A stretch of DNA of 46,831 nt from Gemmatimonadota bacterium (GCA_036679545.1 JAZDDD010000466.1:1-46831), one strand, 5' to 3'. Positions 11,337-28,113 are shown, counted from the stretch's first letter. Made by a program: numbers and translations. The notes: a model not told the origin generated them from the sequence alone.

Positions 11337-11411
11337 TGGGCGAAGAGGGATTCGAACCCCCGACTTCCTGCTTGTAAGGCAGGCGCTCTAAACCAACTGA
11401 GCTATTCGCCC
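11337..11411 (-). tRNA. tRNA-Val (anticodon TAC)
   Basis: Minus-strand read GGGCGAA TA GCTC AGTTGGTTTA GAGC G CCTGC CTTACAA GCAGG AAGTC GGGGG TTCGAAT CCCTC TTCGCCC A is 75 nt. CCA is not encoded. The 76-aa ORF 11296..11526 overlapping it is spurious. Confidence 0.93.
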
Positions 11412-11602: not shown

Positions 11603-11636
11603 GGGTGTGAGAGCCTAATCGTCTACGCCGAAGTCG

Positions 11637-12487: not shown

Positions 12488-13345
12488 TTACGACAGGTCA
12501 GGCTCCTGGCCATCGGAGATTGATTGGAGCGTTTCTTTGCATCGTTCTCCCCACGGGCTAAACGCGTTTGCGCTGACACCGCGTTGCCAGGCGTCCAGTG
12601 CGCCTTCGCGGTTGTTGGCAAGCCATTTCGCTTTGCCCAAGTGGTAAAAGGCTTCGATCATCATGGGTGCACGTTCAATAGCCTTGTCGAAGAACGTCTC
12701 CGCATCTTCGAACATCTCGCGTTCGAAATACACCAACCCAAGATAAAAGTGCGCATACAACGTTGCCTTCTGATCGTTGTCGAGTCGGATGGCCTTTGAC
12801 AGATGTTCGATCGCTTCGCCAAAAATTCGTTTCTTGAGGCAAATGTATCCCACGTTCACACGAGCCATCGAGTTGGCAGGTTCCTTCAACAACACTTGTT
12901 GAAATGTGGCGAGTGCTTCGTCGTGGTCACCGTTTTTCATTTGCGCAGAACCGAGTTGCGTTTCGGCCTTCACGTCGCCGGGTGACAACTCGAGCGCCTT
13001 TGTGGTTGCTTGAATCGCGCCCACAAAATCACCGAGGTTCATCAGGTTCCAACCCTTCTCGATGAACGTGGATGCGCCGAGGTGATCGGCAACCATGGGA
13101 CTGGCAGCCGGCGGTTGTGCATCACCGTTGTCCGTTTCTGCCAACTCCTTGTATTCATCCACCAACACACGGATGTGTTCCTTGAATTCCGTGAGGTCGT
13201 CAATGCGTTGATCGACGCTTTTGAAGAGTGCAACGATATCTTGTTTGACTTCCGCGCGTTCGGTGCCTTTTGGCTTGGCTTTTAGCCGTCCGGCAATTCG
13301 TTTGTATTGACTGCGGAGTTCCGCGATCTCCGATTGTTCACTCAT
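12488..13345 (-). CDS. TPR-repeat protein with N-terminal coiled coil (last gene of the Che/Mgl operon)
   Basis: 285 aa. The N-terminal ~80 aa are charged and helical, followed by TPR-like repeats (ALELSPGDVKAETQLGSAQMKNGDHDEALATFQQVL...). Overlaps the upstream cheW stop by 8 nt. Confidence 0.8.
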   Translation of the reverse strand: MSEQSEIAELRSQYKRIAGRLKAKPKGTERAEVKQDIVALFKSVDQRIDDLTEFKEHIRVLVDEYKELAETDNGDAQPPAASPMVADHLGASTFIEKGWNLMNLGDFVGAIQATTKALELSPGDVKAETQLGSAQMKNGDHDEALATFQQVLLKEPANSMARVNVGYICLKKRIFGEAIEHLSKAIRLDNDQKATLYAHFYLGLVYFEREMFEDAETFFDKAIERAPMMIEAFYHLGKAKWLANNREGALDAWQRGVSANAFSPWGERCKETLQSISDGQEPDLS

Positions 13346-13829
13346 CCAAGACTCCGATCTCGACTGAACGCAATGACAGCGGTTCGGTGGACGTAATCAG
13401 TTTCGAGATTGCCAACACAATAATCGGTGCGGTCTGCTTTGCCACGATACCGGCCACGTAGTCGGCGGCCAGGCCACGCACGACCGGTGGCGGCACAGCA
13501 ATGGCGCTTGCCGACACGGTTTGCAACGACAACGCTGCATCGACAATCAAGCCTACGTTACCAAAACCGCCGGTGACAACGATGATACGCAAATCGTCTC
13601 CCGACAGCGCCGATACGGCAAACCGTTTGCGCAGATCCAACACGGGGATCATTTCGTCCCCGAAGGGCATCATGCCCTCGAAATAATCCGATGATTTGGG
13701 AAGGGCCGTGACGGGTTGGTACCGTATTACACGTTCGACATCCAAGACGTTGAGTGCAAAAATCTGATCCGCCACCCGGAACGTCACAAGCTGGATCCTG
13801 TCCGCACCCGTGTCACCCAACGCGTTCAT
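13338..13829 (-). CDS. cheW: CheW-like coupling protein
   Basis: 163 aa. CheW-domain pattern IQLVTFRVADQIFALNVLDVERVIRYQPVTALP...EGMMPFGDEMIPVLDLRKRF...IIVV...GLIVDAA. ATGA overlap with the upstream cheW. Confidence 0.85.
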   Translation of the reverse strand: MNALGDTGADRIQLVTFRVADQIFALNVLDVERVIRYQPVTALPKSSDYFEGMMPFGDEMIPVLDLRKRFAVSALSGDDLRIIVVTGGFGNVGLIVDAALSLQTVSASAIAVPPPVVRGLAADYVAGIVAKQTAPIIVLAISKLITSTEPLSLRSVEIGVLDE

Positions 13830-14266
13830 GACGCCACCGCTTGCGTATCATCGAGTTGCGCCACGACCGAATGGGTATCCAGGACGGGCAGCGCATGTTC
13901 TTCGTAGGCACCGGTTCCCAGCAACCAACGGCTCCGTGCATCGTTGCGCAACTCGCCAACAAGGACAATGACCTCCACCACATCATCCACCTCGAGCGCC
14001 ACAGGCGTGTTGGCGGATCGTATGACAACTACGGTCGTACTGCCGGCGTTTTCGGCTCCATCGGATGCAACGATACGCGACAACGGGACGACCGCCACCA
14101 CACCGCGTTCGTAACGCACCACGCCTCGGACAGACGGGGCAACACCTGGAACAGGTGTGATTACCACATTGTCAAGCACTTCGATCACGTCGCGCACCGG
14201 CAATCCGTACGGACGACCGCCCACCAAGACGACGAGCACACTCGCACCGTCTAACGTTTGTTGCAA
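13826..14266 (-). CDS. cheW: CheW-like coupling protein (divergent)
   Basis: 146 aa. VLVVLVGGRPYGLPVRDVIEVLDNVVITPVPGVAPSVRGVVRYERGVVAVVPL...VALEVDDV matches the CheW fold pattern. TTG start 1 nt after the upstream stop. Confidence 0.75.
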   Translation of the reverse strand: MQQTLDGASVLVVLVGGRPYGLPVRDVIEVLDNVVITPVPGVAPSVRGVVRYERGVVAVVPLSRIVASDGAENAGSTTVVVIRSANTPVALEVDDVVEVIVLVGELRNDARSRWLLGTGAYEEHALPVLDTHSVVAQLDDTQAVAS

Positions 14267-14267
14267 T

Positions 14268-15890
14268 TCAACCCCGTAACGCGTTCATGGTTTCGAGATT
14301 TGTTCTGGCGAGTTGATGTTGGGGATTTCGACGCAACGCCTGCTCCCACATATATGCTGCCCGGTCTTGATCCCGATTCTTATACGCGATGTTGCCGAGT
14401 TTGAAGTATACGTCATCGCCCAACTCCGGATCGATCTCAACGGCGCGTTCGTAGGACTCCCACGCGTCTTCGAACCGCCCGTGGCGATAAAGAATATCCC
14501 CCAAATTTTTTGAAAGCTGTGGCAGGACCAAACCCTCAGAAATTGCGGCTCGCAACTCGTTTTCCGCTTGTTCCAGCTCCCCACGCAGCTCGAGAATCAC
14601 CGCAAAATTGTTTCGTAACACGGCACTGCGCGGATACAATTTCAGACCTTCGTTGGCGTACCCTTCCGCCGTAACGAGATCATTGCGGGCAGCGTGTGAC
14701 AAACACATGGCCCAATACCAAATCTCACTGAGCCGTCGTTCGCCCGCGGTTTCTTTGGCCGACTGCAAGCGGGTCTCGGCGACTTCGAATTTGCGTTGCC
14801 GTAACGCGATGGCACCCCAACCCGTCAGGAACCGGTGGTCGGTGCCACCGTTGGATGCCGCTTCGCCGTAGGTAGTTTCCGCCTCATCAAATTTGCCGAG
14901 CTGTTCTAAACAAAAGGCGACATTGTACTTCACCGCCGGTGAGTCACCGCCAAGCGTTAACACACGTTGAAAAACTTCCAGCGCTTCATGCCACTCTTGC
15001 CGTTGCAGGCTGACCAGGCCGAGGTGAAAATGGGCTTCGGCGGCTTTGGGATCGAGATCGACGACGCGACGAAACTCACGGGCCGCTTCATCGAGCATAC
15101 CGGTCCGGTAAAACGCTACACCAAGATTTCGGTGCTCCTCGATCTTGGCGTCTGTGGCCACCGTTTTGGTTGCGGTCTCACTCACGCGAGAACGATGAAC
15201 GAACCCCGCCGTGATCAGGCCGTAAAGCGCCTTGCCGACGTCAAATTCGCTCAAACCCGCGCGCTCGACCACCGTGGCGACTGACCGATCTCCATCAATG
15301 AGTGGGATGATGATCCGCTGAGGTTCTGTCAGTTCCACATCAGAGTTGTCCAAGCGCGACCGATCAAGAGTAAACACCAAATCGAACGATGTGATCTTTT
15401 TCTCAATGAGACTCCACTCGTCAATCCGGCGTGCGCCTTCCAGCAGTAACGTCTCCGGGTTAATCGACAACAGAAAATCCTGTCGTTCCGGCCGAATATC
15501 GACTTCAAAATGAAAACTGCCACGTGTCCACGTGAAGAGGTGGTAGATCGCCTCCTCGACTTGTACACGCATGTAACGTTGCAGCTCTTCGGATGAAATA
15601 GCGTCCAACTCAACAAGGATTTCACCGAGCTTCTTGTCACGATCAGAATCTTGTTGTGCGACGGCGTCATCGAGCTGCTCTTTGTTGACCTTGCCGCTGT
15701 TGAGCAGGATATCACCGAGGCGGTCACGTCTGTTGACGATGGCGGCGTACGTAATGCGACCTTGGTCAAAGTAGACGTATCCAAGATTTGTTCGGTCAGT
15801 CAACGAAAGGCAACCGGTCTTTTGCCCCAACGAAAGGAGTTGGAGCACGTCGGGCAGCGAAGCTTCCTTAAGACTTCCTTTGATGGCCAT
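14268..15890 (-). CDS. PATAN (DUF4388) domain protein with C-terminal TPR array
   Basis: 540 aa. N-terminus [30 protein letters not shown]...YVYFDQGRITYA...LGDILL..G.V is the DUF4388/PATAN signature. A helical insertion, a middle region (EGARRIDEWS...LIDGDRSV..SEFDVGKALYGLI) and ~6 TPRs follow. It is a paralogue of 20036..21178. Confidence 0.85.
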   Translation of the reverse strand: MAIKGSLKEASLPDVLQLLSLGQKTGCLSLTDRTNLGYVYFDQGRITYAAIVNRRDRLGDILLNSGKVNKEQLDDAVAQQDSDRDKKLGEILVELDAISSEELQRYMRVQVEEAIYHLFTWTRGSFHFEVDIRPERQDFLLSINPETLLLEGARRIDEWSLIEKKITSFDLVFTLDRSRLDNSDVELTEPQRIIIPLIDGDRSVATVVERAGLSEFDVGKALYGLITAGFVHRSRVSETATKTVATDAKIEEHRNLGVAFYRTGMLDEAAREFRRVVDLDPKAAEAHFHLGLVSLQRQEWHEALEVFQRVLTLGGDSPAVKYNVAFCLEQLGKFDEAETTYGEAASNGGTDHRFLTGWGAIALRQRKFEVAETRLQSAKETAGERRLSEIWYWAMCLSHAARNDLVTAEGYANEGLKLYPRSAVLRNNFAVILELRGELEQAENELRAAISEGLVLPQLSKNLGDILYRHGRFEDAWESYERAVEIDPELGDDVYFKLGNIAYKNRDQDRAAYMWEQALRRNPQHQLARTNLETMNALRG

Positions 15891-17845
15891 CAGCCCATTT
15901 CCCCAATGATGTAATCAACCGGATCGGGCCATTTCCACACGACTTTTTCTGCGGTTTCAATACCACCTGACGGAGACATCACCACACCACTCGGCCGACC
16001 ACGCGCAACGGCCGCAGACTCCCGCAATGCCGTTGCACCCACAACGTCCTTGGCAGACTCTAACGTGGGTGTCTGACCACGTGCGTCGGCGGACGTGATC
16101 ACCCGTTGCCCGAGGGCTAAGACCGACCGGACCGATTCGGCACGTTGATCTGCCAGATAGTCGACCACGGCTTCCTCCACCGCGTCGGTGATACGTTCCT
16201 CAAACTGACGCGTTAGGACCATCTTGCGAAGTTCGTAATCGGGCGGTTTGAGCGTTGCAAGCAACCCTCCCTCCAACCTGGAAACCAGACGATCGTCCAG
16301 ACCTCGAATCTCGCGTGGACGACGAGAAGACGTGAACACGAGTTGTCGTTCGGATTCCAACAATACGTTGAACAAGAAGAAAATCTCTTCTTGTATTCGG
16401 TCTTGACCTCCGATGAGGTCGATATTGTCGAGCAAGAACGCAGACGCGCGGCGATAGCGTGCTCGCCATGAGGGGACCCGATTCTCGTCAATGGCCGTGA
16501 CAAGCTCGTCCATGAACACTTGGGCCGAAGTACACGCAATCCAACCGCGGTCCGGAAGCTCCAAGCCCCGGCCAATCCCGTGTAGTAGATGTGTTTTCCC
16601 CACACCCGACGGACCGATAATCACGAGTGGGTTGTACTGCGTCCCCGGTGCGGCCAAAACCGATTCTGCCGCACTCAAGGCCATCTTTGTCGATCGACTT
16701 CTGAGAAACGTATCGATCGAAAAAGACTTTGATGGCCCGGGCGGCGGTTCAAAGTCTTCCTGCGCGCGCTCGACCACAAGACGGGCCTCTTCGACACGCT
16801 CCGGGTCACGAAAGACCGGATCACCGGCCCGCTCCGGGTTACACTCAGCCACGGCGGCTTGCAACGTGAGTAACTCCGTCACGGCGTCTTCGTAGCGACT
16901 CACGGCATCGGCTGCCTCGGCGGCGACACCACCGTCCAGAGCACGCTCTAGCCGTGCCGTGTTGTAACCACGCCGTGACCAACGATCGACCACATCACGC
17001 AGATTTTGTTGCCACACATCGACCTGTTCGGTCACGGCGGCGGTCACGCCACTCAAAAAAGCGCCGAACTCATCCGCCGACCCAAACACGCCACTGGACC
17101 GACTGAGCGCCAACGCTTCGTCCGCATCGCCGCCACTCAAAACGGCCCTTCCCGCAGCGAGGGTCAAGGGGACATCACTCACCGTTTGAAACGCAATGAT
17201 GCGATTCAGATTGCCCAGCAATTCTCGGACATTTTCCGCGTCGCGTTCAGCGATCATCGCAAGAAGCTCGGCTCCCAGTTCCGCACCTCGCTCGTAGGCA
17301 CGTTGGCGCAGAATAGCTAATCGGTTGTCGAAATCAGGCGGTGCGATATCCACCACGAGACCGCCATCGATCTTCTGCAACATACGATCGTCGAGTTCGG
17401 ATAATTCGGGAGGCGGTTGGTCGCTTGTGAGCACGACCTGTACGCCGGAATCTGCCAGATCTGCAACGAACCGCAAAAGTTCATCCTGCACCTCCGGCCG
17501 CCGGGCAACGAACTGAACGTCGTCGATCAAAACGAGATCGGACGTCAGATACCGCTCGCGGAACGATTCGAGCAATTGCTGACTTGCCGCGGCGCGGTAC
17601 GCCTCCACGAAGTCATCGAGTGTCAGATAGTGCACCACACGGTTCGGATCCACCGATAACGTTTCGTGACCAACGGCCATCAACAGATGTGTTTTGCCAA
17701 GTCCGGTGCCACTGTGTAGAAACAGCGGGTTGTGTACCGACCCGGGTTCTTCGGCGACGGCATGGGCGGCGGTGACGGCAACACGGTTGCCATCTCCGAT
17801 CACAAACGTTTCAAACGTATAGCGTGGATTGAACTCCGAACTCAT
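15890..17845 (-). CDS. tandem DnaA/Hda-type AAA+ ATPase (two domain-III modules, no DNA-binding domain IV)
   Basis: 651 aa. Module 1: [74 protein letters not shown]. Module 2: [80 protein letters not shown]. No DnaA domain I or IV. ATGA overlap with the mglA stop. Confidence 0.85.
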
Positions 17846-18441
17846 CCGGGCGGCGCCTCGCTCAACTTCCTCAATACCATTTCTGAAATCGCCTTCAGTG
17901 TCTCAAAAACGCCGGTGCCATCCAACGCATCCGCGCCTATGTGTGGCACCCCGCGAAAATTTAATGCCTCATTCAGCTCGTCCGCCGTGAGGATCAATTC
18001 CTTTGGCAGACCCTGTTTGTTGTACTGGAAAACAATCGGCAATGTCCGCACGTCAACACCTTGCGCCAACAAATTCTCCTGAAGATTCTGCAAGCTTGTA
18101 AGATTTTCATCTAGCTGTCTAGCCTGGCTGTCCGCGACGAACACCACACCGTCGGCCCCCTGAAGCACCAGCTTTCGAGTCGCATTGTAGTATACCTGCC
18201 CTGGCACGGTGTATAACTGAAACCGTGTCGTGAAACCAGAAATTTTACCGAGTTCCAAGGGGAGGAAATCAAAAAACAACGTCCGATCTGATTGTGTTGC
18301 CAAAGAGACCATGCGTCCCCGCCGAGCCTCGGGCACTTTTTCGTATATGTACTGTAAATTCGTCGTTTTGCCGGAACGACCGGGCCCGTAGTACACAATC
18401 TTACACGTGATTTCACGCGTCGTGAAATTGATTAGCGACAT
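17842..18441 (-). CDS. mglA: MglA-family Ras-like small GTPase
   Basis: From ATG 18441: [33 protein letters not shown]...[14 protein letters not shown]...[13 protein letters not shown]...VFVADSQ...QYNKQ. It is colinear with Myxococcus xanthus MglA as I recall it (P-loop, switch regions, NKxD-like QYNK). The longer ORF to 18540 overlaps mglB and is Arg/Cys-rich junk. Confidence 0.93.
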
Positions 18442-18442
18442 A

Positions 18443-18913
18443 TCAACCCTGAAAGAGCGACGCGAGACTCTCGTTGAGTTCGCGCTCAAAGTCAGCCGCC
18501 AACACGGGCTCGGATGACACCGGCGCCGGATTGGCTTCATTCAACTCGTTAACGAACTCCTCGAAAAACAGGTTAACCAAGCCTAAAGAGGATTCGCGTC
18601 CGTAAATGACGAGCAACACCATCGGTCCGGAAGGGCTCTCGAACGCCGATAAGAATACGCCGTGGGTTGGCCCCTGATGGTTTAACGTCGCGAATGACGG
18701 TTCGCGAAGCATCTTCGTGATTTCCGCCGTGGACGACACAATGGCCGCGCCGAGCGCAGCCGCCGCCATGACGTCCACCGCCCGTGTGAAACCATGCTGC
18801 GCAATTACTTGGCCCGTTGGGTTCATCAAGAGAGCCAACCGCGCCCCGGATTCGGATATGAACATCTCCATGGGTTTCTCAGCCCACGGATGCACCGCCC
18901 GGACCCCGCTCAC
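18443..18913 (-). CDS. mglB: MglB-like Roadblock/LC7 protein (putative MglA GAP)
   Basis: 156 aa with the Roadblock fold pattern. ...[26 protein letters not shown]... and the C-terminal tail [12 protein letters not shown] resemble M. xanthus MglB (...RTSLGLVRL..., ...DNLFSE). Lies directly upstream of mglA, as in mglBA. GTGA overlap with the upstream gene. Confidence 0.8.
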
Positions 18914-19260
18914 GAAAAAACCTCACCGGCGCGCAGCATCTCCAACCTAACCAAACCCACGTTCGCATTGGTGTCCGTCACAATGACCACAAGAACATCT
19001 TGATTGGTGGCCAAGACCAAGACCGCGCCCTCAGAGCACTGCATATGAAGAAACCTGGGTTCGCCAGCCTGTGCGGTTCCCGAGACCCAAGTGAATTTAC
19101 CAAACACACTGGCAGCCAGGGCAGCGAGAGCCTTTCCACGGACACCCTCCATCAACGTCTCGGCGATGATCAACCCGTCGTCCCGGGCTACAAACATTGC
19201 CCCCTGGACACCACGAACCCGCGTCAAAACATCGAGCACTCCCTGTAACTGGTGTGTCAC
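18910..19260 (-). CDS. Roadblock/LC7 domain protein (MglB paralogue, MglC-like size)
   Basis: 116 aa: VLDVLTRVRGVQGAMFVARDDGLIIAE......ALAALAASVFG......FLHMQCSEGAVLVLATNQDVLVVIVTDTNANVGLVRLEM is a typical Robl_LC7 pattern. Confidence 0.8.
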   Translation of the reverse strand: MTHQLQGVLDVLTRVRGVQGAMFVARDDGLIIAETLMEGVRGKALAALAASVFGKFTWVSGTAQAGEPRFLHMQCSEGAVLVLATNQDVLVVIVTDTNANVGLVRLEMLRAGEVFS

Positions 19261-20027
19261 GGGCGTTGCCCTTCCAACCAGCCGCGGGCCGCGTCATTTG
19301 CTTTTTGCGCGAGAAAGGCCAGCCTCCCCGGCGGGACACTCCGATCTCGCATGGTTACAAGACATGTTTCACTGGTTGGTTGCGTGAGATGAACATTTTG
19401 ACTGGCCGACTCCGCGATGAGCCACTCCCATTCGCCCAAATCCAGGAGACGGGCCGTTCGTTCGGCCTCTCGCACGAGAGCGGCCACCCGCGCGGCCATT
19501 TCATCTGTGTTCGCGTCACCACCCAGCCGACCCGCCAGGACACGACCCGCGTCATCGACAAGCAACAGCCCGTGCTCGGCTCCCTCCAAACCTGCAAAGA
19601 TATTCGGTTCTTCATCACCTTCTTCGATCGTGCGCGCCGCGGTGCGGACCAGCTGAAGCGCCTGCAACACGCTTTGATCGGTAGGATCAACGGCCAACGC
19701 CGTCTCGAGATGCTCTAGCGCGGCATCGAGGTCACCGCGCGAATAATAAAGGAAACCCAATCCCTTATGGGCGCCCTGATGCCGTGCGTCGCGCTGCAAG
19801 ACCGTCTCCCAGACATGACGAGCTTCATCGGGGCGAGACGCATCGAGTAAGAGTCGTGCGTACAGATCTCTGGCGGCCGGCAGGTCGGGGTAACGCTCAA
19901 GACCGGACAATGCGACCGCAGTGGCAGATTCCAGATCACCCTTGCGCCGCAACCCCTCACTCAATCTGAGAAATACAAGGCTGTCCGGATCACGCGCAAA
20001 CTCCCGCGCCAGTGCTTGGATGTCCAC
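19257..20027 (-). CDS. TPR - Roadblock/LC7-like fusion protein
   Basis: 256 aa. N-terminal ~130 aa are TPR (GDLESATAVALSGLERYPDLPAARDLYARLLL..., GDLDAALEHLETALAVDP). The C-terminal ~110 aa (GLLLVDDAGRVLAG..EMAARVAALVREAERTARLLDLGEWEWLIAESASQNVHLTQPTSETCLVTMRDRSVPPGRLAFLAQKA) have the Roadblock alpha-beta pattern. GTG start. Confidence 0.7.
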   Translation of the reverse strand: MDIQALAREFARDPDSLVFLRLSEGLRRKGDLESATAVALSGLERYPDLPAARDLYARLLLDASRPDEARHVWETVLQRDARHQGAHKGLGFLYYSRGDLDAALEHLETALAVDPTDQSVLQALQLVRTAARTIEEGDEEPNIFAGLEGAEHGLLLVDDAGRVLAGRLGGDANTDEMAARVAALVREAERTARLLDLGEWEWLIAESASQNVHLTQPTSETCLVTMRDRSVPPGRLAFLAQKANDAARGWLEGQRP

Positions 20028-20035
20028 GATCGAAA

Positions 20036-21178
20036 TCAGGCCTTGAGAAATGCGTCTAGCGTCTGCGCAGCCTTGATAGCGCCTTGCACATGCTCAGTCG
20101 TGACGTCTTCTGCATCAGTTTCTTCATTGAGTTGCAACCAATGACCCCACCACGCGCTGGCCTCTTTCAACCGGCCCTGACGGGCGAGGGCGTCACCCAG
20201 GAGTCGATGACCGAGCGCCAAGGAGGAATCCAATCTGAGGGCGCGGCGCAACGTCTCCTCGGCGTCTTCGGCGCGTTCGGCAGCAAGATGCACCCGCCCC
20301 ATGGTCAACAGTAGTCGTGCGTCGTGTGGCTGATCGGAGAGCGCCATTTCGATCACCGAACGCGCGCCCTCGAGGTCTCTTTCACGCAGGGCTCCCTCTG
20401 CCTCGGCAATTCTTTGATCGGTGGTGTCTTCTTCGATGACAACGGGGTGGCTACTCGAGCGCCGTGCAAGGATGGTGACGATGCCGGCACTCTCCATGCC
20501 GAAGATCGTTCGCGCCACATCGAATTCCGACTTACTCAACGACTTTGCAATCCCTCTCACGTCACGTAACCCATCGATCATCGCAAGTAGCTCCCACTCT
20601 GTCGGCAATAGATCGAGTTCGCCTTCTTCGCCGGCAACCGCCGCCGTCAGTGCCGGCACGACACCAACGTGTGGAATTTTGCGTTCCATCCGCGACCACT
20701 CGTCGATCCGGCGCGCACCCTCCATAAGCAATGCTTCGGTCCTGATGCGTGTCGATGCGTCCCCCGGGACCGATTGATCGTCTTCTTCGAAGGAGAAATA
20801 ACCCTCGTGCCAACTCATCATTTCGAAGATTACTTCTTCCACTTGAAAGCGAACTTGCCGCTCCAGCTCGCCCGCGGTGATCGCACCAACGGAGATCAAG
20901 ATTTCTCCGATCTTTCGAGCGTCACCCTGTTCTTGTTGGGACCGCGCCAGCCGCAAATCGGCTTCGGCGACCTTCCCCGAGCGGACAAGAAGCTCTCCTA
21001 ACGGATGGGGGTTGCTGCGGATCTCGGCATATATCACCGACCCCGATTGTAGCCACACCGCACCCTGGTTGCGTCGGAGTTGGGAGGTTACGCGGAGGAC
21101 ACCCGTTTTCTTGCTCAAATCGAGCAATTGAAAAACATCGTGAATCCCGAGTTCCTTGAGCGGCCCCTCGATAGCCAT
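20036..21178 (-). CDS. PATAN (DUF4388) domain protein with C-terminal TPRs (paralogue of 14268..15890)
   Basis: From ATG 21178, 1 nt after the upstream TAG: MAIEGPLKELGIHDVFQLLDLSKKTGVLRVTS...VWLQSGSVIYAE...LGELLVRSGKV...EGARRIDEWSRMERKIP...MIDGLRDV..SEFDVARTIFGM, then TPRs. The longer ORF to 21373 overlaps the upstream TPR gene. Confidence 0.85.
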   Translation of the reverse strand: MAIEGPLKELGIHDVFQLLDLSKKTGVLRVTSQLRRNQGAVWLQSGSVIYAEIRSNPHPLGELLVRSGKVAEADLRLARSQQEQGDARKIGEILISVGAITAGELERQVRFQVEEVIFEMMSWHEGYFSFEEDDQSVPGDASTRIRTEALLMEGARRIDEWSRMERKIPHVGVVPALTAAVAGEEGELDLLPTEWELLAMIDGLRDVRGIAKSLSKSEFDVARTIFGMESAGIVTILARRSSSHPVVIEEDTTDQRIAEAEGALRERDLEGARSVIEMALSDQPHDARLLLTMGRVHLAAERAEDAEETLRRALRLDSSLALGHRLLGDALARQGRLKEASAWWGHWLQLNEETDAEDVTTEHVQGAIKAAQTLDAFLKA

Positions 21179-21179
21179 C

Positions 21180-23861
21180 CTACGCTGCCTCGGTCCGGAA
21201 AATGTGACTGAGTTCGTCAGCGGAGCGCAGGTGCCGGCGAGCCGAAACCGCCCGCGGACCGGCCGGATCAAGACCCACGACACGCTTCCACGCGGCCGCC
21301 GCTTCACTGTATCTTCGCAACTTAGCCTGCGCCAAGCCCAGAAAATAATAGGCATCCACCTGACCGACCTCAAATACTAGCACGCGTTGAAACGCACTGA
21401 TCGCTTCGACGAATCTGCCATCGGCCAACAGAGCCTCACCCAACGCCAACAGGGCTTGAATGTTCGTGGGGTTTCCGCGTACTAAATCTGCCAGCAGGTT
21501 TACCGCACTCCGCGCAGACCCCTGGCGGACACAGAGCCTCGCGAGCGGTAGTGCCGCCTTGGACGACCCGGGCTCGGCGTCTAACGCCGCACGGTAGGCA
21601 GCCTCGGCGGCGTCCACGTCGTTACGTGCCTCATGTAGTTCGCCGAGTTCTACGAGCAACGTCAATAACTTCGGGTCGAGTGTTAGCGCGCCCTCGAAGG
21701 CCTTGAGAGCCCGCTCGTAGTTGCCAAGGTCCACGGCGATGGCTCCCTCGACCTTCAAGATGTCGGCCCGTTGCGGCGCGCGCTTGTGCGCACGTTCAAG
21801 GACCTCCAACGCGCTTGCGGGATCCTTATTGGCAAGGAGCGTCTCGGCGAAAACAAGGAGCACGTCCGCGTCATCGGCGTGCTTGTCCGCCCACTCTCTC
21901 GCCATGTCGAGCGCTTCGCGATTCTTGTCAGTGGCCAAGAGTGCTCGGATTTCACTAATTCCCAACGGAAGGCGTTCTGGCCGTGACCGGCGGGCCTCGC
22001 GGAAACGTTCGAGGGCTTCGCCGTGCAGACCGCGACGCATAAAGATGCCTCCCAACAGGGCCTGGCCCTCACCGGGATCCGCACCCCGCGCCAACGCGCG
22101 GTTTGCCTCGGCAGCGGCCAGTTCATAAAGACCCTTGCTGACATAATCACGGGCCAATCCGAAGGCATCGTCGATGGGTTTAGACACCGTTGCTTCCGTT
22201 GACGCGCTGAGTTCCGAAAAAACGTCCTCCAAAACCTTAGGATCGAAATCGAACTCCGCTGTGCCCTCGGTTGATATATCTGCCGAAATTTCCGGAACGA
22301 CTGTTATGGAGGGATCCTCCAATTGCAGTTCGATCGCAAGTTGGAATTTTTGCGGGACGTAGTACGGGTCAATGTTTTGTGCGCGTGTCACGGCGCGTAA
22401 TGCCGCGTCGTAGTCGCCAAGGGCGGACAATGAGAAACTGAGGTTGTAATGCGCCTCCGCTGAGTTCGGCTCGCTTTCGACGGCGCGGACAAACGCATTA
22501 CGGGCGTCTTCATGTTGGCCAAGCTCGGCCATCACCAACCCAAGACCGTTCCACGCCGGAGCGCTGGAAGCGTTGCGTTCGATAACTTGCCGATAGGTCT
22601 GGGCGGCCACCTTCAAACGCCCGGCACTCAACAACAACTTCCCCAAATTGAGCACGGGCCGTTCCAGTTCCGGTTGCGAAAGCATGGCCTGGCGAAACGC
22701 GGCTAGCGCATCGCCATTGTTTCCATTATGTGCCAACGTCACCGCGAGATTATTACTGGCCAGCCCGTAGTGCTCGTCATGATGCAACGCCTCTCGGTAC
22801 GACTGCACCGCATCCGCGTAACGACCGAGTTGATGCAACACGACGCCTCGTTCGTTCCAGAGTTTTGGCCGATCCGGCATTTCACGAAGCAAGGAATCGT
22901 ACAGGTCGAGTGCGGCAGCATAATCTCGTTTGAGCGAGCTAACCTCCGCTATGGCTTCGAGCACGTGTTGGCGATCCTCACCATGATCGAGTGCTAAGCG
23001 AAATTCCCGCAACGCATCCGTCAGATAACCTTGGGAACGGAACGCAACGCCCAGATTGTAGTGAGCCATGGGATCAGGGTCCGATGGCACGCCCTCATCG
23101 CCGCCTGAAATCTCGTATGCCGCATTGGACCGATCCCCCACGTAGGGTTCCAACGAGAGGTTGGTTTGGACACGGCCAAATGACGGATTCAGACGGATGG
23201 CCTTGTTTGTGGCTTCACGTGCTTCCTCGTGGCGCCCCAAGTCGCCCAAGAGAAACGCAATCAAATAATGTGCTTCGGCATTGTCGGGATTCAGCGTGAC
23301 CGACCGCTCGAGCGAGCGCAGTGCCTCTTTTTTCGCGCCTTGATTGTACAGCACCTCACCGCGATAAAAATGTCCAACGGTACTTTCCGGGTCGATCTCC
23401 ACCGCACGGCCGAACCACTCAACGGCATCGTCCAGATTTCCCCGCCGTTTTTCGGCGAGCCCAATCTGCGTGACCGCGGCAACGTCATCAGGATTGAGTT
23501 CCAAGATGGATTGGAATTGCGCAATTGCGAGGTCAAACTGATTGAGGGAGGCGTACGCGCGCCCAAGTTCCCATTGGGATTCACGTTCTACCGGATCGTC
23601 ACGGAGACGCTCTTGCAGTTGCGCTACCCGTCGGTCGTAGAAACCCGTTTCTTCATACGCAATTTCGAGGTTGCGTTGCGCCACGCGCATTTTGGGATCC
23701 AACTCGATGGCGCTGCTAAATTCTTCGATGGCCTCATCAATCAGACCCTTCCGAAAATACAACACGCCCAAATTGTTGTGGGCGCCGGGATCGGACGGAT
23801 CGATTCGTCTCGCGAAGGAGCGGAGAGTTTCTTTCTCAGCTTCAGATAGTGCTGCAGGCAC
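21180..23861 (-). CDS. large TPR-repeat scaffold protein (893 aa)
   Basis: TPR consensus repeats run along the whole length (e.g. AHNNLGVLYFRKGLIDEAIEEFSSAIELDP, AEAHYLIAFLLGDLGRHEEAREATNKAIRLNP). GTG start 2 nt after the cheC stop. Confidence 0.88.
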   Translation of the reverse strand: MPAALSEAEKETLRSFARRIDPSDPGAHNNLGVLYFRKGLIDEAIEEFSSAIELDPKMRVAQRNLEIAYEETGFYDRRVAQLQERLRDDPVERESQWELGRAYASLNQFDLAIAQFQSILELNPDDVAAVTQIGLAEKRRGNLDDAVEWFGRAVEIDPESTVGHFYRGEVLYNQGAKKEALRSLERSVTLNPDNAEAHYLIAFLLGDLGRHEEAREATNKAIRLNPSFGRVQTNLSLEPYVGDRSNAAYEISGGDEGVPSDPDPMAHYNLGVAFRSQGYLTDALREFRLALDHGEDRQHVLEAIAEVSSLKRDYAAALDLYDSLLREMPDRPKLWNERGVVLHQLGRYADAVQSYREALHHDEHYGLASNNLAVTLAHNGNNGDALAAFRQAMLSQPELERPVLNLGKLLLSAGRLKVAAQTYRQVIERNASSAPAWNGLGLVMAELGQHEDARNAFVRAVESEPNSAEAHYNLSFSLSALGDYDAALRAVTRAQNIDPYYVPQKFQLAIELQLEDPSITVVPEISADISTEGTAEFDFDPKVLEDVFSELSASTEATVSKPIDDAFGLARDYVSKGLYELAAAEANRALARGADPGEGQALLGGIFMRRGLHGEALERFREARRSRPERLPLGISEIRALLATDKNREALDMAREWADKHADDADVLLVFAETLLANKDPASALEVLERAHKRAPQRADILKVEGAIAVDLGNYERALKAFEGALTLDPKLLTLLVELGELHEARNDVDAAEAAYRAALDAEPGSSKAALPLARLCVRQGSARSAVNLLADLVRGNPTNIQALLALGEALLADGRFVEAISAFQRVLVFEVGQVDAYYFLGLAQAKLRRYSEAAAAWKRVVGLDPAGPRAVSARRHLRSADELSHIFRTEAA

Positions 23862-23863
23862 GG

Positions 23864-24487
23864 TCAGTTCACGCGTATTGCATCAAAGATCGCTTGTAAC
23901 GATGGCCCATCCGGCAAGAGGAGGAAGTGTCCCAAAAGACGTTGCTCCGCCTCTCGAAAGAAAAACTCCGTCTCGACACACAGGATCGTGTCGTGCTCGT
24001 CGGTGGGTTCCGCCAATGCCGACTTCAACACCACCGCCGCTTCGTCTGCCACCAACGTCGGTACGGACGGAAGCAACATCATTCCCATGAAATCGGATAG
24101 CGCATTGAGGTACGCCCCACCCAGGATATTTCCCGCTTCCTTGAGACTGGACTCCTCCAGTTCATTGAACGATGTGGTGGAGCCCGGTTCTTTTCGCATC
24201 AGCAGATCGCACAGAAGTCGCGCATCGGCGTCCGGTAGCAAGAGAAGTGTCCTTCCGGTCAGGTCGCCCAGCATATGCATGAAAACGGCGATGACTCGTC
24301 CCGACGGGTCACCGAGCAAACCGGCAGCGTCTTCGTATCGCGTCACGTTGATCTCGGGAATCGAAATCATGATGCTGCGGTCGGTCATTTGTGACAATGC
24401 CGTCGCCGCATGGCCGGCGCCAATGTTTGCTACCTCACGCAGCGCATCGAGCTGCAGTGCCTTGAGACTTCGCACAGCGGACATCAT
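23864..24487 (-). CDS. cheC: CheC-family CheY-P phosphatase
   Basis: 207 aa with both CheC active-site repeats of the (D/S)xxxExxN type: DALREVANIGAGHAATALSQM and ESSLKEAGNILGGAYLNALSDF. Strong SD (GAGGAGGAAGA) directly upstream. Confidence 0.88.
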   Translation of the reverse strand: MMSAVRSLKALQLDALREVANIGAGHAATALSQMTDRSIMISIPEINVTRYEDAAGLLGDPSGRVIAVFMHMLGDLTGRTLLLLPDADARLLCDLLMRKEPGSTTSFNELEESSLKEAGNILGGAYLNALSDFMGMMLLPSVPTLVADEAAVVLKSALAEPTDEHDTILCVETEFFFREAEQRLLGHFLLLPDGPSLQAIFDAIRVN

Positions 24488-24547
24488 GTCTTCCTCCTCA
24501 GACCTCAGTCGTGTCGCTCCCGTAGCGACCGAAAACTCTACGACAAA

Positions 24548-26296
24548 TCAAACCAGGCGAGCAGCGTCCAGAATGAGGACGGGTTCTCCCTCTCCAAGTA
24601 CGGTGGCTCCGGCAAAAAATGGCGCCGTCCCACGCGGCATATCGAACGCCCGAGCGACGATGTCCTGTTGCCCAACGACGCGATCCACCACAAGTCCGGT
24701 CCGCCGATCACCTACCTGCACGATGATAACCGGCTGGCGGGTTGGGCCCGTCCCACCCAACTGCACAAGATCGCGCAACCGCGAGAGCGGAACCGTGCCA
24801 TGCCTCACGGTTAGACGGTCGGTCTCCCCATCGCGTGTTGTCGAACACGCGTCGAGATCAACCGTTTCGGCCACATGTGTGAGCGGAATGGCATACCGTT
24901 CGTTTTCTACCTCCGCTACCAACGCAGGCAAGATTGCCAGTGTCGGCACTCCGCGACCGGAAAGATCCGAAACACTTGAGGCGGTGGAGAAGCCAGGCTG
25001 GGCCAAAAGCTCTAAAAGCTCTTCGGTCTTCAAGTTATCGGCATTTTGGCCTGGGATCTGGCGTTCCTTGGCTTTTCTCAGAATACGGTCCCGATCGACA
25101 CCGCGGCCATCGTCGCGAACCCGAATCACGATCATGGCCCGCTCCCGGTGTGCTGAAAGCGTAATCCGACCGACCGCCGGTTTTCCGCTGGCCACCCGTT
25201 CTTCGGGTGCTTCGATGCCGTGGTCTATGGCATTCCGCAATAGGTGAAGCAGTGGATCGCTCAGCTCATCCAGGATAGCGCGGTCCAACTCGATCTCACG
25301 GCCTTCAATGGCCAGAACCACCTGTTTCCCGTGCTCACGTGCGGCATCCCTGACACCACGAGGGAACCTGTCAAAAACCTGAGACACAGGCGCCATGCGA
25401 GCTTGAATGACCTCGTGTTGGAGCCCCTCGACCAGGTGGGAAACCTTCCGAGTCATGGTCTCGAACGTGGGATCAGCGCTTCCCGCCGCCAACTCCATCA
25501 ACCCGGCTTTGGCGGTGGTGAGTTCTCCCACGAGATTCATAATCGCGTCCAACCGCCGCAGATCGACCCGCACGTGACGAGCGGCGGTCGACTCCTTGGT
25601 GTCCGTTCCCACTTCGGCGATGGTCACCGACTCAACGTCGCCGGCTCCCTTGATCAACTCCTCGATTTCAAGGTCTGACTGATCGGTCTGCAATCCAAAG
25701 CTGAACCGACCGTCAAACGCCTGTGTCTCCATGGATGCCTGTGGCGGAGAAACAGCCAGAACGTTTCCGAGCGCAGCCACACGCTGCAGCACCAACGCCG
25801 CACGGGCACCCCGCAACAGCGCTTCCCTTCGGATCCGGACTTCCACACGACGGGTGCCGGCTGGGGCCGCAGATGGCGATTCCGGCGGCTGCACTTCCGT
25901 TTCCGCGTCCGCGGGTTCGAAGGAGCCGGCCAATTCGTCGAGCACGGCGATGGCTTGGTTTACATCAGTGGACTCGCGACCGTTGACCGCGTCATCGATG
26001 CACTGCTCGAGTCGGTCCGACGATTGGAACAAAAGCTGAAGCAATTCCTGATCTGGCGGATCGGGAGACGCGCGCACCAGATCGAGCACATTCTCAATGG
26101 CATGAGATAAACGCGCAACGTCACTGAACCCCATCGTGGCGGACATGCCTTTGAGGTTGTGGACTGCACGGAAGATGGCATCGACTGACCCCGTGGCGTC
26201 AGGTCGCCCTTCCAGCACGAGCAGCTGATTGTTGATGACCGTAAGATGTTCGCGGCTCTCGTCGAGAAAAAGATCCGCGTACTTCGCGGGGTCCAT
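24548..26296 (-). CDS. cheA: chemotaxis histidine kinase CheA (Hpt-P2-like-dimerisation-HATPase-CheW domains) with a shortened HATPase domain
   Basis: 582 aa. Hpt site FRAVHNLKGMSATMGF. P3 VRVDLRRLDAIMNLVGEL. N-box LLHLLRNAIDHGIE. G1 DDGRGVD. F-box QPGFST. G2 begins SGRGV but runs straight into PTLAILPALV, the P4-P5 linker. C-terminal CheW-like P5 (YAIPLTHV...GLVVDRVVGQQDIV...). Confidence 0.9.
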   Translation of the reverse strand: MDPAKYADLFLDESREHLTVINNQLLVLEGRPDATGSVDAIFRAVHNLKGMSATMGFSDVARLSHAIENVLDLVRASPDPPDQELLQLLFQSSDRLEQCIDDAVNGRESTDVNQAIAVLDELAGSFEPADAETEVQPPESPSAAPAGTRRVEVRIRREALLRGARAALVLQRVAALGNVLAVSPPQASMETQAFDGRFSFGLQTDQSDLEIEELIKGAGDVESVTIAEVGTDTKESTAARHVRVDLRRLDAIMNLVGELTTAKAGLMELAAGSADPTFETMTRKVSHLVEGLQHEVIQARMAPVSQVFDRFPRGVRDAAREHGKQVVLAIEGREIELDRAILDELSDPLLHLLRNAIDHGIEAPEERVASGKPAVGRITLSAHRERAMIVIRVRDDGRGVDRDRILRKAKERQIPGQNADNLKTEELLELLAQPGFSTASSVSDLSGRGVPTLAILPALVAEVENERYAIPLTHVAETVDLDACSTTRDGETDRLTVRHGTVPLSRLRDLVQLGGTGPTRQPVIIVQVGDRRTGLVVDRVVGQQDIVARAFDMPRGTAPFFAGATVLGEGEPVLILDAARLV

Positions 26297-26298
26297 CG

Positions 26299-26661
26299 TT
26301 ACGCGAGAACTCGCTGCACTGCTTCGAGCACGCGCGAGGGTTGGAACGGCTTGACCACGAAATCTTTCGCGCCAGCCTGGATGGCCTCAACCACAAGCGC
26401 CTGTTGACCCATCGCGCTGCACATGAGCACCCGGGCGGACGGATCGATTTTCACGATCTCACGGACCGCATCGATCCCACCCATATCGGGCATCACAATG
26501 TCCATCGTCACCAGGTCGGGCTTCAGCTCCTTGAATCGGTCGACGGCCTCCACGCCGGTCTCGGCCTCTCCAATCACATCGTAATCCGCCTGCCTCAGAA
26601 TGTCGCCAATCATGGTTCGCATGAAAATAGCGTCGTCACACACAAGAACGGTTTGGCTCAC
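26299..26661 (-). CDS. cheY: CheY response regulator
   Basis: 120 aa, closely colinear with Thermotoga/Bacillus-type CheY: VLVCDDAIFMR, DLVTMDIVMPDMGGIDA, VLMCSAMGQ, KDFVVKPFQPSRV. GTG start with GTGA overlap and a strong SD (GAGGAGGTG). Confidence 0.95.
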   Translation of the reverse strand: MSQTVLVCDDAIFMRTMIGDILRQADYDVIGEAETGVEAVDRFKELKPDLVTMDIVMPDMGGIDAVREIVKIDPSARVLMCSAMGQQALVVEAIQAGAKDFVVKPFQPSRVLEAVQRVLA

Positions 26662-27038
26662 ACCACCTCCTCAGATGGCATCACGGCTGATGACAATACT
26701 GCTGGGTCCAAAACGGCGAAGGAGACCTCGTGATGGACGCCGATCCCACTTACAAACGGCGACCGGATTCCCGGCAATGCCGCTCGCGGCGAAAAATCAC
26801 CCTCACCGACCACCACCATATCGAGCACCTCATCTACAGCCAGCGCAAAACGGTGTCGGTCCGCTTCCAGTAGCACAATGGAGTATCGGCCGGTGCTAGT
26901 GTTCTGCTGAAGAGCGGCACGGGCGTCGACCAGTGTCACGAGTTCGCCGCGGACGCTGACCAATCCACTCACGGGGGGTGCGGCCCCCGGAATACGGGTC
27001 ACGGGCAGCGCCGGCAAGACCTCCCGGACGCAGCTCAC
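26658..27038 (-). CDS. cheW: CheW-like coupling protein (first gene of the operon; true start probably upstream of 27038)
   Basis: 126 aa from GTG 27038: VREVLPALPVTRIPGAAPPVSGLVSVRGELVTLVD...FALAVDEVLDMV. The frame stays open to 27101 and encodes ..IARFLVFKVDELTCAVPV, the conserved first CheW strand, with no ATG/GTG/TTG in that stretch. Confidence 0.8.
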   Translation of the reverse strand: MSCVREVLPALPVTRIPGAAPPVSGLVSVRGELVTLVDARAALQQNTSTGRYSIVLLEADRHRFALAVDEVLDMVVVGEGDFSPRAALPGIRSPFVSGIGVHHEVSFAVLDPAVLSSAVMPSEEVV

Positions 27039-27105
27039 CGGTACCGCGCACGTCAGTTCATCAACTTTGAAGACAAGAAACCGCGCGATGGAAAACGCTG
27101 CCTAT

Positions 27106-28113
27106 TTACTGGAAAAAGCCAAGATACTCGAGGGCCGAGCGGCCAGCAACGACGTGGTCCTGACCCATCACATCCGTAAGGGCCGGTTTGAGGTCCTCCG
27201 GCCAATCGGCGCGGCAGTCAATCACCTCACCGGATACCGGATGATTGAATCGGAGCGCTGCGGCGTGGAGGGCCTGACGTGGCGTTTTGGCTTCCATGCG
27301 CGTGGCAGCGACTCGTCGCGCCGGTCCGACACGGCGGGCGCCACCACCCCCGTAAACCGGATCGCCCACAACGGGATGACCCACATGCGCGAGGTGGACA
27401 CGGATTTGATGGGTACGACCTGTCTCCAACGTCACGCGGAGTAGGTCACAGTCCTCAAATCGTGCGAGCCGATGAATGATGGTCCGGGCCCGCCGACCGG
27501 TCGCGAGGACGGTCATACGTTTTCGATCCGTGGGATGACGCGCAACCGGAGCATCAATCGTTGCCTCGTCATGTTTGAGATGCCCCCAACTCAGGGCCGC
27601 ATAGATGCGTTGGACGTCATGTTTGGCAAGATCCCGGGCCAACCGCTGGTGTGCCTGAGTTGTTTTTGCCACAAGGATGAGGCCGGAGGTATCGCGATCC
27701 AAACGATGAACGATCCCGGGACGTTCAGTTGAGAACTTCGAAAGCTCCGTGCCTCGCGCAACCAGTGCGTTGACAAGTGTGTCATCCCAATGTCCGGGAG
27801 CAGGGTGTACAACCAACCCGGCGGGTTTGTCAATCACCATCAAATGCTCATCTTCGTAAACTACGTCGAGGTCGATTTGCTTGGGTCGCAACTGTCGCAA
27901 GGATGTGGTTTGCGGTGTTGCCACGGACACGGTGTCACCGCGTACCAAACGGCGGCTCGCCCGCCCGACTTCGCCATTAACCGTGACGACGCCTTCCGCG
28001 ACAAGACGACCGGTCTGACTTCGGGAATATTCGAGTTGATCCGCAAGAAACCGATCGAGACGTTCCGTACGGTCAACGGTGACTTGGAACGTCCGTTCCA
28101 CCCCCGTCGACAC
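27106..28113 (-). CDS. rluD: 23S rRNA pseudouridine synthase, RluD/RluA family
   Basis: 335 aa. N-terminal S4 domain (RLDRFLADQL..SRSQTGRLV..G.V.VNG) and catalytic motif HRLDRDTSGLILVAK. Confidence 0.9.
   Translation of the reverse strand: MSTGVERTFQVTVDRTERLDRFLADQLEYSRSQTGRLVAEGVVTVNGEVGRASRRLVRGDTVSVATPQTTSLRQLRPKQIDLDVVYEDEHLMVIDKPAGLVVHPAPGHWDDTLVNALVARGTELSKFSTERPGIVHRLDRDTSGLILVAKTTQAHQRLARDLAKHDVQRIYAALSWGHLKHDEATIDAPVARHPTDRKRMTVLATGRRARTIIHRLARFEDCDLLRVTLETGRTHQIRVHLAHVGHPVVGDPVYGGGGARRVGPARRVAATRMEAKTPRQALHAAALRFNHPVSGEVIDCRADWPEDLKPALTDVMGQDHVVAGRSALEYLGFFQ

Follow-up and report, generated by a model that had tools for sequence, protein, structure and literature searches.

Chemosensory genes interleaved with an MglA/MglB module in a conserved gene cluster of Gemmatimonadota

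The DNA analyzed here is a 46,831-nucleotide (nt) stretch from a Gemmatimonadota bacterium (GCA_036679545.1, JAZDDD010000466.1:1-46831), and "the window" refers below to this 46.8-kb stretch over its whole length. All long open reading frames (ORFs) of the region lie on its minus strand, where fifteen of them form a block in which chemotaxis-type (che) genes are interleaved with genes for the small GTPase MglA, its partner MglB and several accessory proteins. A preliminary description, made from the sequence alone, had assigned these genes to families, and we found that Pfam profile searches and comparison with PDB structures agree with it for all 15 products. Read 5′ to 3′, the genes are cheW (cheW1), cheY, cheA, cheC, a gene for an 893-amino-acid (aa) TPR protein (TPR893), a first PATAN-TPR gene (PATAN1), a TPR-Roadblock fusion, a stand-alone Roadblock gene, mglB, mglA, a gene for a tandem DnaA-like AAA+ protein, a second PATAN-TPR gene (PATAN2), two further cheW genes (cheW2 and cheW3) and a gene for a 285-aa TPR protein (TPR285), the order previously given. 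Three CheW-only and five TPR-bearing proteins are thus encoded, the numbers that had been reported.

The genes are as tightly packed as was first claimed, with neighbors overlapping or no more than 8 nt apart at 13 of the 14 junctions. GTGA overlaps join cheW1 to cheY, the TPR-Roadblock fusion to the Roadblock gene and the latter to mglB, while ATGA overlaps are present at mglA/AAA+ and cheW2/cheW3, a TGATG at AAA+/PATAN2 and an 8-nt overlap at cheW3/TPR285. Gaps of 1-2 nt separate cheY from cheA, cheC from TPR893, TPR893 from PATAN1, mglB from mglA and PATAN2 from cheW2, and 8 nt lie between PATAN1 and the TPR-Roadblock gene. The exception is a 60-nt gap between cheA and cheC, which holds a GAGGAGG Shine-Dalgarno sequence upstream of the cheC ATG. 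The block therefore has the features of an operon, with co-directional genes, overlapping or near-abutting junctions and conservation across genomes, and the view that che and mglBA belong to one translationally packed unit is borne out by junctions that were read directly and are repeated in relatives.

The block is a vertically inherited piece of Gemmatimonadota synteny that always lies between ileS-lspA-rluD and the cell-division (dcw) cluster. The order in relatives is rluD, cheW, cheY, cheA, cheC, TPR~893, PATAN-TPR, TPR-Roadblock, Roadblock, mglB, mglA, the double DnaA-like AAA+ gene, PATAN-TPR, cheR, cheD, cheB, cheW, cheW, TPR~286, Peptidase_MA_2, a gene for a ~585-aa protein and mraW, and order and overlaps are identical in the Gemmatimonadota genome loci L001, L004, L006, L011 and L012. 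Because order and packing are repeated in independent genomes, the arrangement is well beyond chance. At least 120 proteins, each representing a 90%-identity cluster, are related to the tandem AAA+ protein over its full length, and all of the named ones are labeled as Gemmatimonadetes or Gemmatimonadales. The IleS sequence places the window in a deep, sparsely sampled branch of the phylum, with named matches 63-66% identical and only three closer relatives.

Linkage between che genes and mglA was assessed in a sample of 80 metagenomic MglA loci. Loci with an MglA of at least 69% identity always had this cluster, and the cheA/cheC block was present in 18 of the 18 that reach far enough upstream to be assessed. 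Among long loci whose MglA is at most 62% identical, which represent other lineages, none of seven had che genes within 10 kb, indicating that the linkage of Che to MglA is specific to this cluster family. Every metagenome locus that reaches past PATAN2 has cheR, and none of them has the layout of the window. A separate contig scan with an alignment of the tandem AAA+ protein was flooded by true DnaA, which shares the Walker A pattern, and only eight of its 80 loci were informative. In L119 and L120 we observed cluster variants without the AAA+ gene.

Comparison of these loci resolves the block into a ten-gene core and two che blocks. The core consists of TPR893, PATAN-TPR, TPR-Roadblock, Roadblock, MglB, MglA, the tandem DnaA-like AAA+ protein, PATAN-TPR, TPR285 and an MA-family metalloprotease (Peptidase_MA_2) that follows the fifteen genes. 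The che genes are interleaved with it as a 5′ block, cheW-cheY-cheA-cheC, and a 3′ block, which is cheR-cheD-cheB-cheW-cheW in relatives and cheW-cheW in the window. They are separable from the core, as L002 and L003, two independent assemblies, retain all ten core genes intact and have no che gene at all; L002 is the nearest relative recovered outside the window's clade. Where the PATAN2 junction is covered, cheR follows in all relatives save the window's own clade and this che-less lineage; most have cheR-cheD-cheB, and two lineages (L010, L101) have cheR-cheD without cheB and the two 3′ cheW genes. The same order is found in L130 (1-20576; MglA 65% identical), where the DnaA-like AAA+ protein has 455 aa and only one module, and where the 3′ end is made up of cheB, TPR, cheW and, as the last gene, a methyl-accepting chemotaxis protein (MCP) with HAMP and MCPsignal domains. 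L151, in which MglA is 58% identical, retains mglA, AAA+, PATAN-TPR, cheR, cheD, cheB and TPR. Minimal clusters of PATAN, TPR-Roadblock, Roadblock, mglA and mglB, with the mglA-mglB order reversed and without che genes, occur in L133, L141 and L162. L130 also has an additional 253-aa ORF without family between cheD and cheB.

No MCP, CheR, CheB or CheD is encoded within the window, as determined by Pfam searches of its ORFs and by tblastn with the MCP hairpin sequence. This agrees with what was first observed; the interpretation then placed on it, a receptor-less and self-contained switch fed by a non-MCP input scaffold, has not survived comparison with relatives, which carry the MCP-acting cheR (with cheD and cheB) and, in L130, an MCP. 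Cultured Gemmatimonas has dispersed MCP genes, with at least three scattered round the chromosome of Gemmatimonas phototrophica (transcriptome supplement). The PATAN2-cheW2 junction of the window is a 1-nt gap at the very place where relatives carry cheR-cheD-cheB. An assembly artefact was considered and rejected, since a junction identical in lacking cheR/D/B is present in the independently assembled sister genome GCA_036679565.1 (L085). The enzymes for methylation and adaptation are gone from this lineage. Given that CheR, CheD and CheB act on MCPs and that L130 ends with an MCP, the system is receptor-dependent by ancestry, and the window layout is a derived, reduced form and not a distinct design principle.

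The Che proteins resemble those of Thermotoga/Bacillus, as had been proposed. CheY is ~73% identical to T. maritima CheY (hand count on the alignment, E 2e-50) and 82-90% identical to Gemmatimonadales orthologues, and its phospho-acceptor pocket (D9, D10, D54, S82, K104) is intact. CheC matches the CheC_Thtogales model, and both D/S-x3-E-x2-N-x22-P motifs could be read in its sequence. CheA has the Hpt motif VHNLKG in P1 as well as P2, P3 and P5, and its closest structural relatives are T. maritima CheA chains. Of the marks of the Thermotoga/Bacillus (F1-like) chemotaxis class, CheC and the CheA P2 domain are present in the window, and CheD is missing there and present in relatives.

Two genes of the 5′ che block show signs of damage. 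Relative to the 94%-identical CheA of L085, the window CheA has a clean in-frame deletion of 99 nt (33 aa) at ~24947, which takes out GIDVVMTRLRSIGGSLDMESEVGRGTVFTLRLP directly after the G2-box SGRGV and up to the P5 linker, and no flanking repeat accounts for it. The HATPase_c match covers positions 4-85 of the 111-position profile with 33.9 bits in the window versus positions 4-109 with 63.1 bits in L085, and the P4 ATP-binding domain is intact in L085 and in all other relatives but not here. The deleted stretch corresponds to the core of the Bergerat ATP-binding fold on its C-terminal side, and its removal has probably crippled the kinase. The cheW1 frame opens after a TAG (27104-27102) that lies 1 nt past the TAA stop of rluD (27108-27106). 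From 27101 to 27038 this frame is open and codes for a conserved CheW-like N-terminus, AAFSIARFLVFKVDELTCAVPV, without any ATG, GTG or TTG; the first canonical start is the GTG at 27038, and the only near-cognate starts ahead of it are ATC and CTG. The cheW1 of L085 also lacks ATG, GTG and TTG in this region, with one A fewer, which places it in frame with rluD behind TAA-TAG. In relatives, an ATG for cheW1 overlaps or abuts the rluD stop.

We then considered selection on the block, calculating pairwise ratios of nonsynonymous to synonymous substitution (dN/dS) against the sister L085, with dS ranging from 0.14 to 0.40. The entire block is under purifying selection, with dN/dS of 0.026-0.070 in core genes; values for individual genes are given in Table 1. 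Wholesale pseudogenization of the che genes in this clade was examined as a candidate explanation and is only partly supported, as dN/dS is ~0.01 for cheY and cheC and 0.12 for cheA, signs of relaxation are confined to cheW1 and cheW2, and the window alone has the P4 deletion. The low values indicate that the Che part was functional in the clade until recently, and erosion is concentrated at the receptor-coupling side. The copy in the window genome is probably partly disabled. Its core is likely to receive little input from Che or none, and in the che-less relative the core necessarily operates without any. In L166 (IleS 80% identical), che and TPR genes at 7220-12610 are fragmented; this is a 2.6x long-read contig in which the fragmentation is probably sequencing error, and it was not used as evidence of decay.

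Within the core, MglA and MglB are matched only weakly by Pfam, and their assignments come from solved structures. MglA matches M. xanthus MglA across residues 1-192 (E 5e-73), a full-length match that fixes the true start at ATG 18441, and it has the P-loop, the equivalent of the intrinsic arginine R53 and YTVPGQ, containing the TVPGQ switch-II motif, as is characteristic of Group-1 MglA. MglB matches the M. xanthus and Thermus MglB chains in PDB at E 4.8e-9 to 3e-4, its Robl_LC7 score of 22.4 bits being slightly below the 23-bit cut-off, and the gene ends 1 nt before the mglA ATG, the position of a cognate neighbor. The top PDB matches of the 116-aa Roadblock protein are generic Roadblock structures, and MglB matches it weakly. 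Both PATAN proteins end in TPR repeats and give no Response_reg match; as they have no receiver, they are not PatA-type regulators. Their alpha-clip inserts, within the N-terminal parts of the two genes (20669-21178 and 15381-15890), each contain two tandem 24-residue MshEN-like motifs of the form (R/K)-L-G-x-x-L-V-x-x-G-x-I-...-Q, the Gly and Gln of which are invariant across the family in an alignment of relatives. This suggests, as a lead, that the inserts may bind cyclic di-GMP (c-di-GMP).

The tandem AAA+ protein is made up of two modules of the DnaA domain III type. Its N-terminal module is ~50% identical to domain III of B. subtilis DnaA (hand count on the alignment, E 3e-55), and an AlphaFold2 (AF2) model with a mean pLDDT of 82.9 has two DnaA-III folds joined by long linking helices at residues 261-364, with a target-normalized TM-score of 0.92 against PDB 8bv3 (B. 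subtilis DnaA domain III). Neither Pfam nor the AF2 model gives any DnaA domain I, II or IV; lacking domain IV, the protein is not DnaA. Both modules have retained the Walker A, sensor and box VIII motifs. In the window clade, module 2 has D-N in place of D-D in its Walker B and module 1 has lost the box VII arginine, whereas Gemmatimonadales retain both. This paired loss suggests that a single composite ATP site lies between the modules and has degenerated in the window clade. The protein scores over the cut-off of the NCBIfam DnaA equivalog model solely owing to its domain duplication, and pipelines of the type of the Prokaryotic Genome Annotation Pipeline (PGAP) may therefore misname it as DnaA.

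Table 1. Features of the block and its immediate neighbors, in order of transcription, with pairwise dN/dS against L085
Feature	Position	Strand	Evidence and remarks	dN/dS
rluD (pseudouridine synthase)	27106..28113	-	Pfam PseudoU_synth_2, E 4.7e-33; upstream neighbor in every relative	
cheW1	26658..27101	-	Pfam CheW, E 1.9e-19; frame and comparison with relatives	0.33
cheY	26299..26661	-	Pfam Response_reg, E 4e-30; PDB 1tmy, E 2e-50; single-domain, Thermotoga type	0.012
cheA	24548..26296	-	Pfam Hpt (P1), P2, H-kinase_dim (P3), HATPase_c (P4), CheW (P5)	0.118
cheC (predicted CheY-P phosphatase)	23864..24487	-	Pfam CheC, E 6e-19, 2 stretches; NCBIfam CheC_Thtogales, E 1.8e-45	0.011
All-TPR protein, 893 aa (TPR893)	21180..23861	-	Pfam TPR families; first core gene; in all relatives, including che-less L002	0.070
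PATAN (DUF4388)-TPR protein 1	20036..21178	-	Pfam DUF4388, 109.5 bits; NF053729, 33.4 bits	
TPR-Roadblock/LC7 fusion	19257..20027	-	Pfam TPR and Robl_LC7, E 2.5e-9	
Stand-alone Roadblock/LC7, 116 aa	18910..19260	-	Pfam Robl_LC7, E 4.7e-11	
mglB (predicted Roadblock-type GTPase-activating protein of MglA)	18443..18913	-	PDB MglB 6izw, 6h5b; adjoins mglA upstream	
mglA	17842..18441	-	PDB 6hjh, 5ymx, E 5e-73, full length; Group-1 MglA; true start ATG 18441	0.029
Tandem DnaA-domain-III AAA+, 651 aa	15890..17845	-	Pfam Bac_DnaA x2, 297 bits; PDB 8bv3, E 3e-55	
PATAN (DUF4388)-TPR protein 2	14268..15890	-	Pfam DUF4388, 130.4 bits; MshEN-like motifs	0.026
cheW2	13826..14266	-	Pfam CheW, E 1.9e-16	0.24
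cheW3	13338..13829	-	Pfam CheW, E 3.1e-25	0.105
TPR protein, 285 aa (TPR285)	12488..13345	-	Pfam TPR; core member, retained in che-less L002/L003	
Peptidase_MA_2 metalloprotease	11637..12431	-	Pfam, E 5.2e-10; HExxH (VHELAH); C-terminal hydrophobic membrane helix; weak flagellinolysin match	
tRNA-Val	11337..11411	-	ARAGORN and Rfam; 3′ limit of packed protein-coding run	

The fifteen genes all lie at 12488-27101, where the preliminary description had placed them, but these positions are not the limits of the packed run, which takes in further genes on both sides. The upstream genes ileS, dksA-like (encoding a DksA-like zinc finger), lspA and rluD are packed equally tightly, and the rluD stop is only 4 nt ahead of the opening of the cheW1 frame, so that transcription of the ileS-dksA-lspA-rluD unit probably continues into the Che-Mgl genes. 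The Peptidase_MA_2 gene begins at most 56 nt after TPR285 and is the last conserved gene of the block in all relatives, the che-less one included. A scan of the window for consensus promoters and terminators gave nothing that exceeds the shuffled expectation, and its only Rfam matches are two tRNAs. These are tRNA-Asp (9408-9482, minus strand) and the tRNA-Val of Table 1, which flank a gene for a 586-aa protein at 9539-11299. This protein has a signal-peptide-like N-terminus and no Pfam match; its place before mraW is conserved, and its homologues in relatives, in the same position, give faint TPR signals. Further out, the upstream side (28120-42772) has tilS, hpt, ftsH, folP and cdaA, then ylmE-like, divIVA, PNP, ileS, dksA-like, lspA and rluD, and the downstream side (1-9380) has mraW, ftsI (with a PASTA domain), murE, murF, mraY and murD. 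Because such ancient housekeeping synteny flanks it on both sides, the block can be placed between genes that in Bacillus border the division/cell-wall cluster at its end and at its start.

The reading that we favor, and to which we give about an even chance, is that the block is the form taken in Gemmatimonadota by a conserved supra-operon joining a chemosensory system to an MglA/MglB module, in which an MCP-CheA-CheY pathway modulates a polarity module. MCP arrays encoded elsewhere would couple to CheA through the CheW proteins, CheA would phosphorylate CheY, and CheC would reset it. Phosphorylated CheY (CheY~P) would then act on the polarity module; its likeliest targets are the PATAN-TPR proteins, as PatA-type regulators combine a PATAN and a receiver domain in one protein, and the TPR and Roadblock proteins may offer a further route. 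In this way the balance between MglA-GTP and the GTPase-activating MglB could be shifted, with the two extra Roadblock proteins possibly serving as MglC- or Ragulator-like adaptors. The outcome might be that the pole of a polar machine is set or switched, MglA-GTP marking the active pole. The machine could be type IV pili, through PATAN contacts with PilB and PilC as in cyanobacteria, or a single polar flagellum. The tandem DnaA-III ATPase may act as an ATP-dependent assembly switch or scaffold, and the MshEN-like motifs of both PATAN proteins may add an input from c-di-GMP.

Several points weigh against this proposal. We infer the step from CheY~P to MglA, and no FliM-N-like CheY-docking motif was found in the cluster proteins. 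The che genes could simply be a flagellar pathway, given that the ~73%-identical CheY of T. maritima is flagellar and that cultured Gemmatimonas has a polar flagellum (PMC9862903). The core persists without che genes in L002, the PATAN match to the NCBIfam model "c-di-GMP-binding, MshE-related" (NF053729) is below its cut-off, and the CheA deletion could be an artefact of the consensus of a metagenome-assembled genome. A bolder version of the proposal is possible, though we hold it only tentatively. It would have a hard-wired circuit from chemoreceptor to small GTPase in Gemmatimonadota and at least two divergent lineages (L130, L151), of an origin separate from that of the myxobacterial Frz-MglAB connection, with CheY~P acting via PATAN-TPR and Roadblock proteins, the tandem AAA+ protein as an ATP-driven part and c-di-GMP entering via the alpha-clips, and with the window clade uncoupling stepwise.

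Alternatively, MglA/MglB, the AAA+ protein and the TPR proteins may constitute a polar landmark for the chemoreceptor array, the flagellum or both, with CheY signaling to the flagellar motor. A precedent is known in ParC/ParP, an NTPase-based positioning pair embedded in the che operons of Vibrio and Pseudomonas. The flagellar Thermotoga/Bacillus type of CheY, CheC and CheA, the single polar flagellum on Gemmatimonas cells (PMC9862903) and the placement of the extra cheW genes next to TPR285 are consistent with such a function. However, the che-less L002 and L003 keep the complete core, whose main job therefore cannot be the placement of a Che array; the simpler clusters of L133, L141 and L162 also lack che genes, and the targets of the MglA systems known so far are type IV pili and gliding machinery rather than arrays. 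We thus consider the landmark function unlikely. The two gene sets may instead be merely co-regulated, as two motility pathways that share a transcription unit without direct signaling. The two discrete che blocks can indeed be lost without disturbing the core (entirely in L002, cheRDB in the window, cheB and two cheW genes in L010 and L101), core proteins have no CheY-docking motif, and the unit is also packed with the unrelated housekeeping genes ileS, lspA and rluD. Yet the che blocks are interleaved with the core at two separate positions, the arrangement is held down to ~58-65% MglA identity (L130, L151), the other MglA lineages sampled have no che linkage, and a gene order with overlaps that is kept for so long usually reflects functional coupling, making simple co-regulation unlikely as well.

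The explanation first put forward, a receptor-less, self-contained switch from kinase to GTPase with an input scaffold of TPR and CheW-only proteins instead of MCPs, fits the absence of MCP, CheR, CheB and CheD from the window, its three CheW and five TPR-bearing proteins, and the same layout in L085. We rejected it as a design on the strength of the cheR-cheD-cheB genes that occupy the site of the 1-nt gap in orthologous clusters and of the MCP in one of these, L130. The dispersed MCP genes of the cultured relative and the incomplete P4 of the window CheA also count against it, the view it was based on takes in 46.8 kb of a genome, and the TPR proteins exist where che is absent and so are not input devices for CheA. 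It is accordingly very improbable, and what looked like a receptor-less trait is a lineage-specific reduction.

The route by which a chemosensory pathway came to control the MglA/MglB polarity switch has so far been studied only in Myxococcus, where the genes are unlinked, many connecting proteins are involved and the link from kinase to GTPase is still debated. Here the whole candidate circuit lies in one conserved operon. Gemmatimonadota has cultured, genetically approachable members (Gemmatimonas), and natural variants exist as a complete form, a cheRDB-less form and a che-less form. The combination of one operon, cultured members and natural variants makes the coupling directly testable. 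Three new candidate players in polarity are also nominated, namely the DnaA-domain-III tandem ATPase, the PATAN-TPR proteins with their c-di-GMP-like motifs and the TPR-Roadblock fusion.

Full-text searches of the accessible literature found no description of this cluster, in keeping with the earlier impression that its composition had not been characterized. The fullest survey of small GTPases in prokaryotes (Wuichet and Sogaard-Andersen, 2015; PMC4316618) reports variable neighborhoods for Group-1 MglA with occasional PATAN genes, so that the link between PATAN and MglA/MglB neighborhoods was noted earlier; Che genes are not mentioned. Of the G. aurantiaca loci in that survey, GAU_1115 is given only as "MglB>MglA>" and GAU_1409 as "PATAN>MglA>-PATAN>". 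It has been hypothesized that MglAB joined a Che system by recruitment, with no physical linkage reported (Guzzo et al., 2015; PMC4546325). PilB1 and PilC have been described as binding partners of PATAN, the output domain, and PatA-type regulators as derived from chemosensory systems (bioRxiv 10.1101/2021.06.11.447907).

Among known systems, the Frz pathway of Myxococcus with MglA/MglB/RomR also combines a Che-type kinase pathway with a Group-1 MglA and the Roadblock GTPase-activating protein MglB, and the extra Roadblock proteins found here can be compared with MglC of Myxococcus. SgmX is a TPR-rich partner in Myxococcus to which the TPR-rich proteins of the block may be likened. In Myxococcus, however, mgl and che genes are unlinked, whereas here they are in one packed unit; that M. 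xanthus mglBA does not lie near the genes of its signaling partners, as the preliminary description had stated, is confirmed by PMC4316618. The window has no CheA-receiver fusion (FrzE), dual-receiver FrzZ, FrzCD/MCP or RomR and does not encode a Frz system; its Che proteins are instead Thermotoga-type, with P2 and CheC. The tandem DnaA-like AAA+ and PATAN-TPR proteins have no counterpart among the polarity proteins of PMC4316618 and PMC4546325.

The cyanobacterial Tax/Pix operons, with their PatA-type regulators of type IV pili, resemble the block in that che genes adjoin PATAN genes and the PATAN alpha-clip is present, and PATAN is a likely output adaptor. They differ in that PATAN is here fused to TPR and not to a receiver, with a separate CheY and no PatA-type receiver, that the unit also contains genes for MglA, MglB, Roadblock and AAA+ proteins, and that the operon has no MCP or photoreceptor gene. 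The chemotaxis core of Thermotoga/Bacillus is matched in CheY (~73%), the CheC model and the P2 of CheA, to which relatives add CheD, CheR and CheB; unlike that core, the che cluster is here split by ten genes of other kinds, CheD, CheR and CheB are missing from the window, P4 of its CheA is truncated, and no flagellar genes are nearby. Actinobacterial conservons (CvnA kinase, CvnB Roadblock, CvnC and the MglA-like CvnD) likewise bring together a histidine kinase, a Roadblock protein and an MglA-family GTPase in one operon (PMC4316618), but with a membrane sensor kinase, a Group-2 MglA and no response regulator, in place of the CheA with CheW, CheY and CheC, the Group-1 MglA and the bona fide MglB found here. 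Finally, each AAA+ module has the fold and motifs of domain III of the DnaA/Hda family; in contrast to DnaA, there are two modules per chain without domains I, II and IV, the gene adjoins mglA and not a replication origin, and one putative composite ATP site is degenerate in the window clade. Taken together, these comparisons indicate that the pairing of Che with MglA/MglB is itself known from Myxococcus, and that the cluster described here is a real, phylum-wide gene architecture with several new components that is apparently new to the literature.

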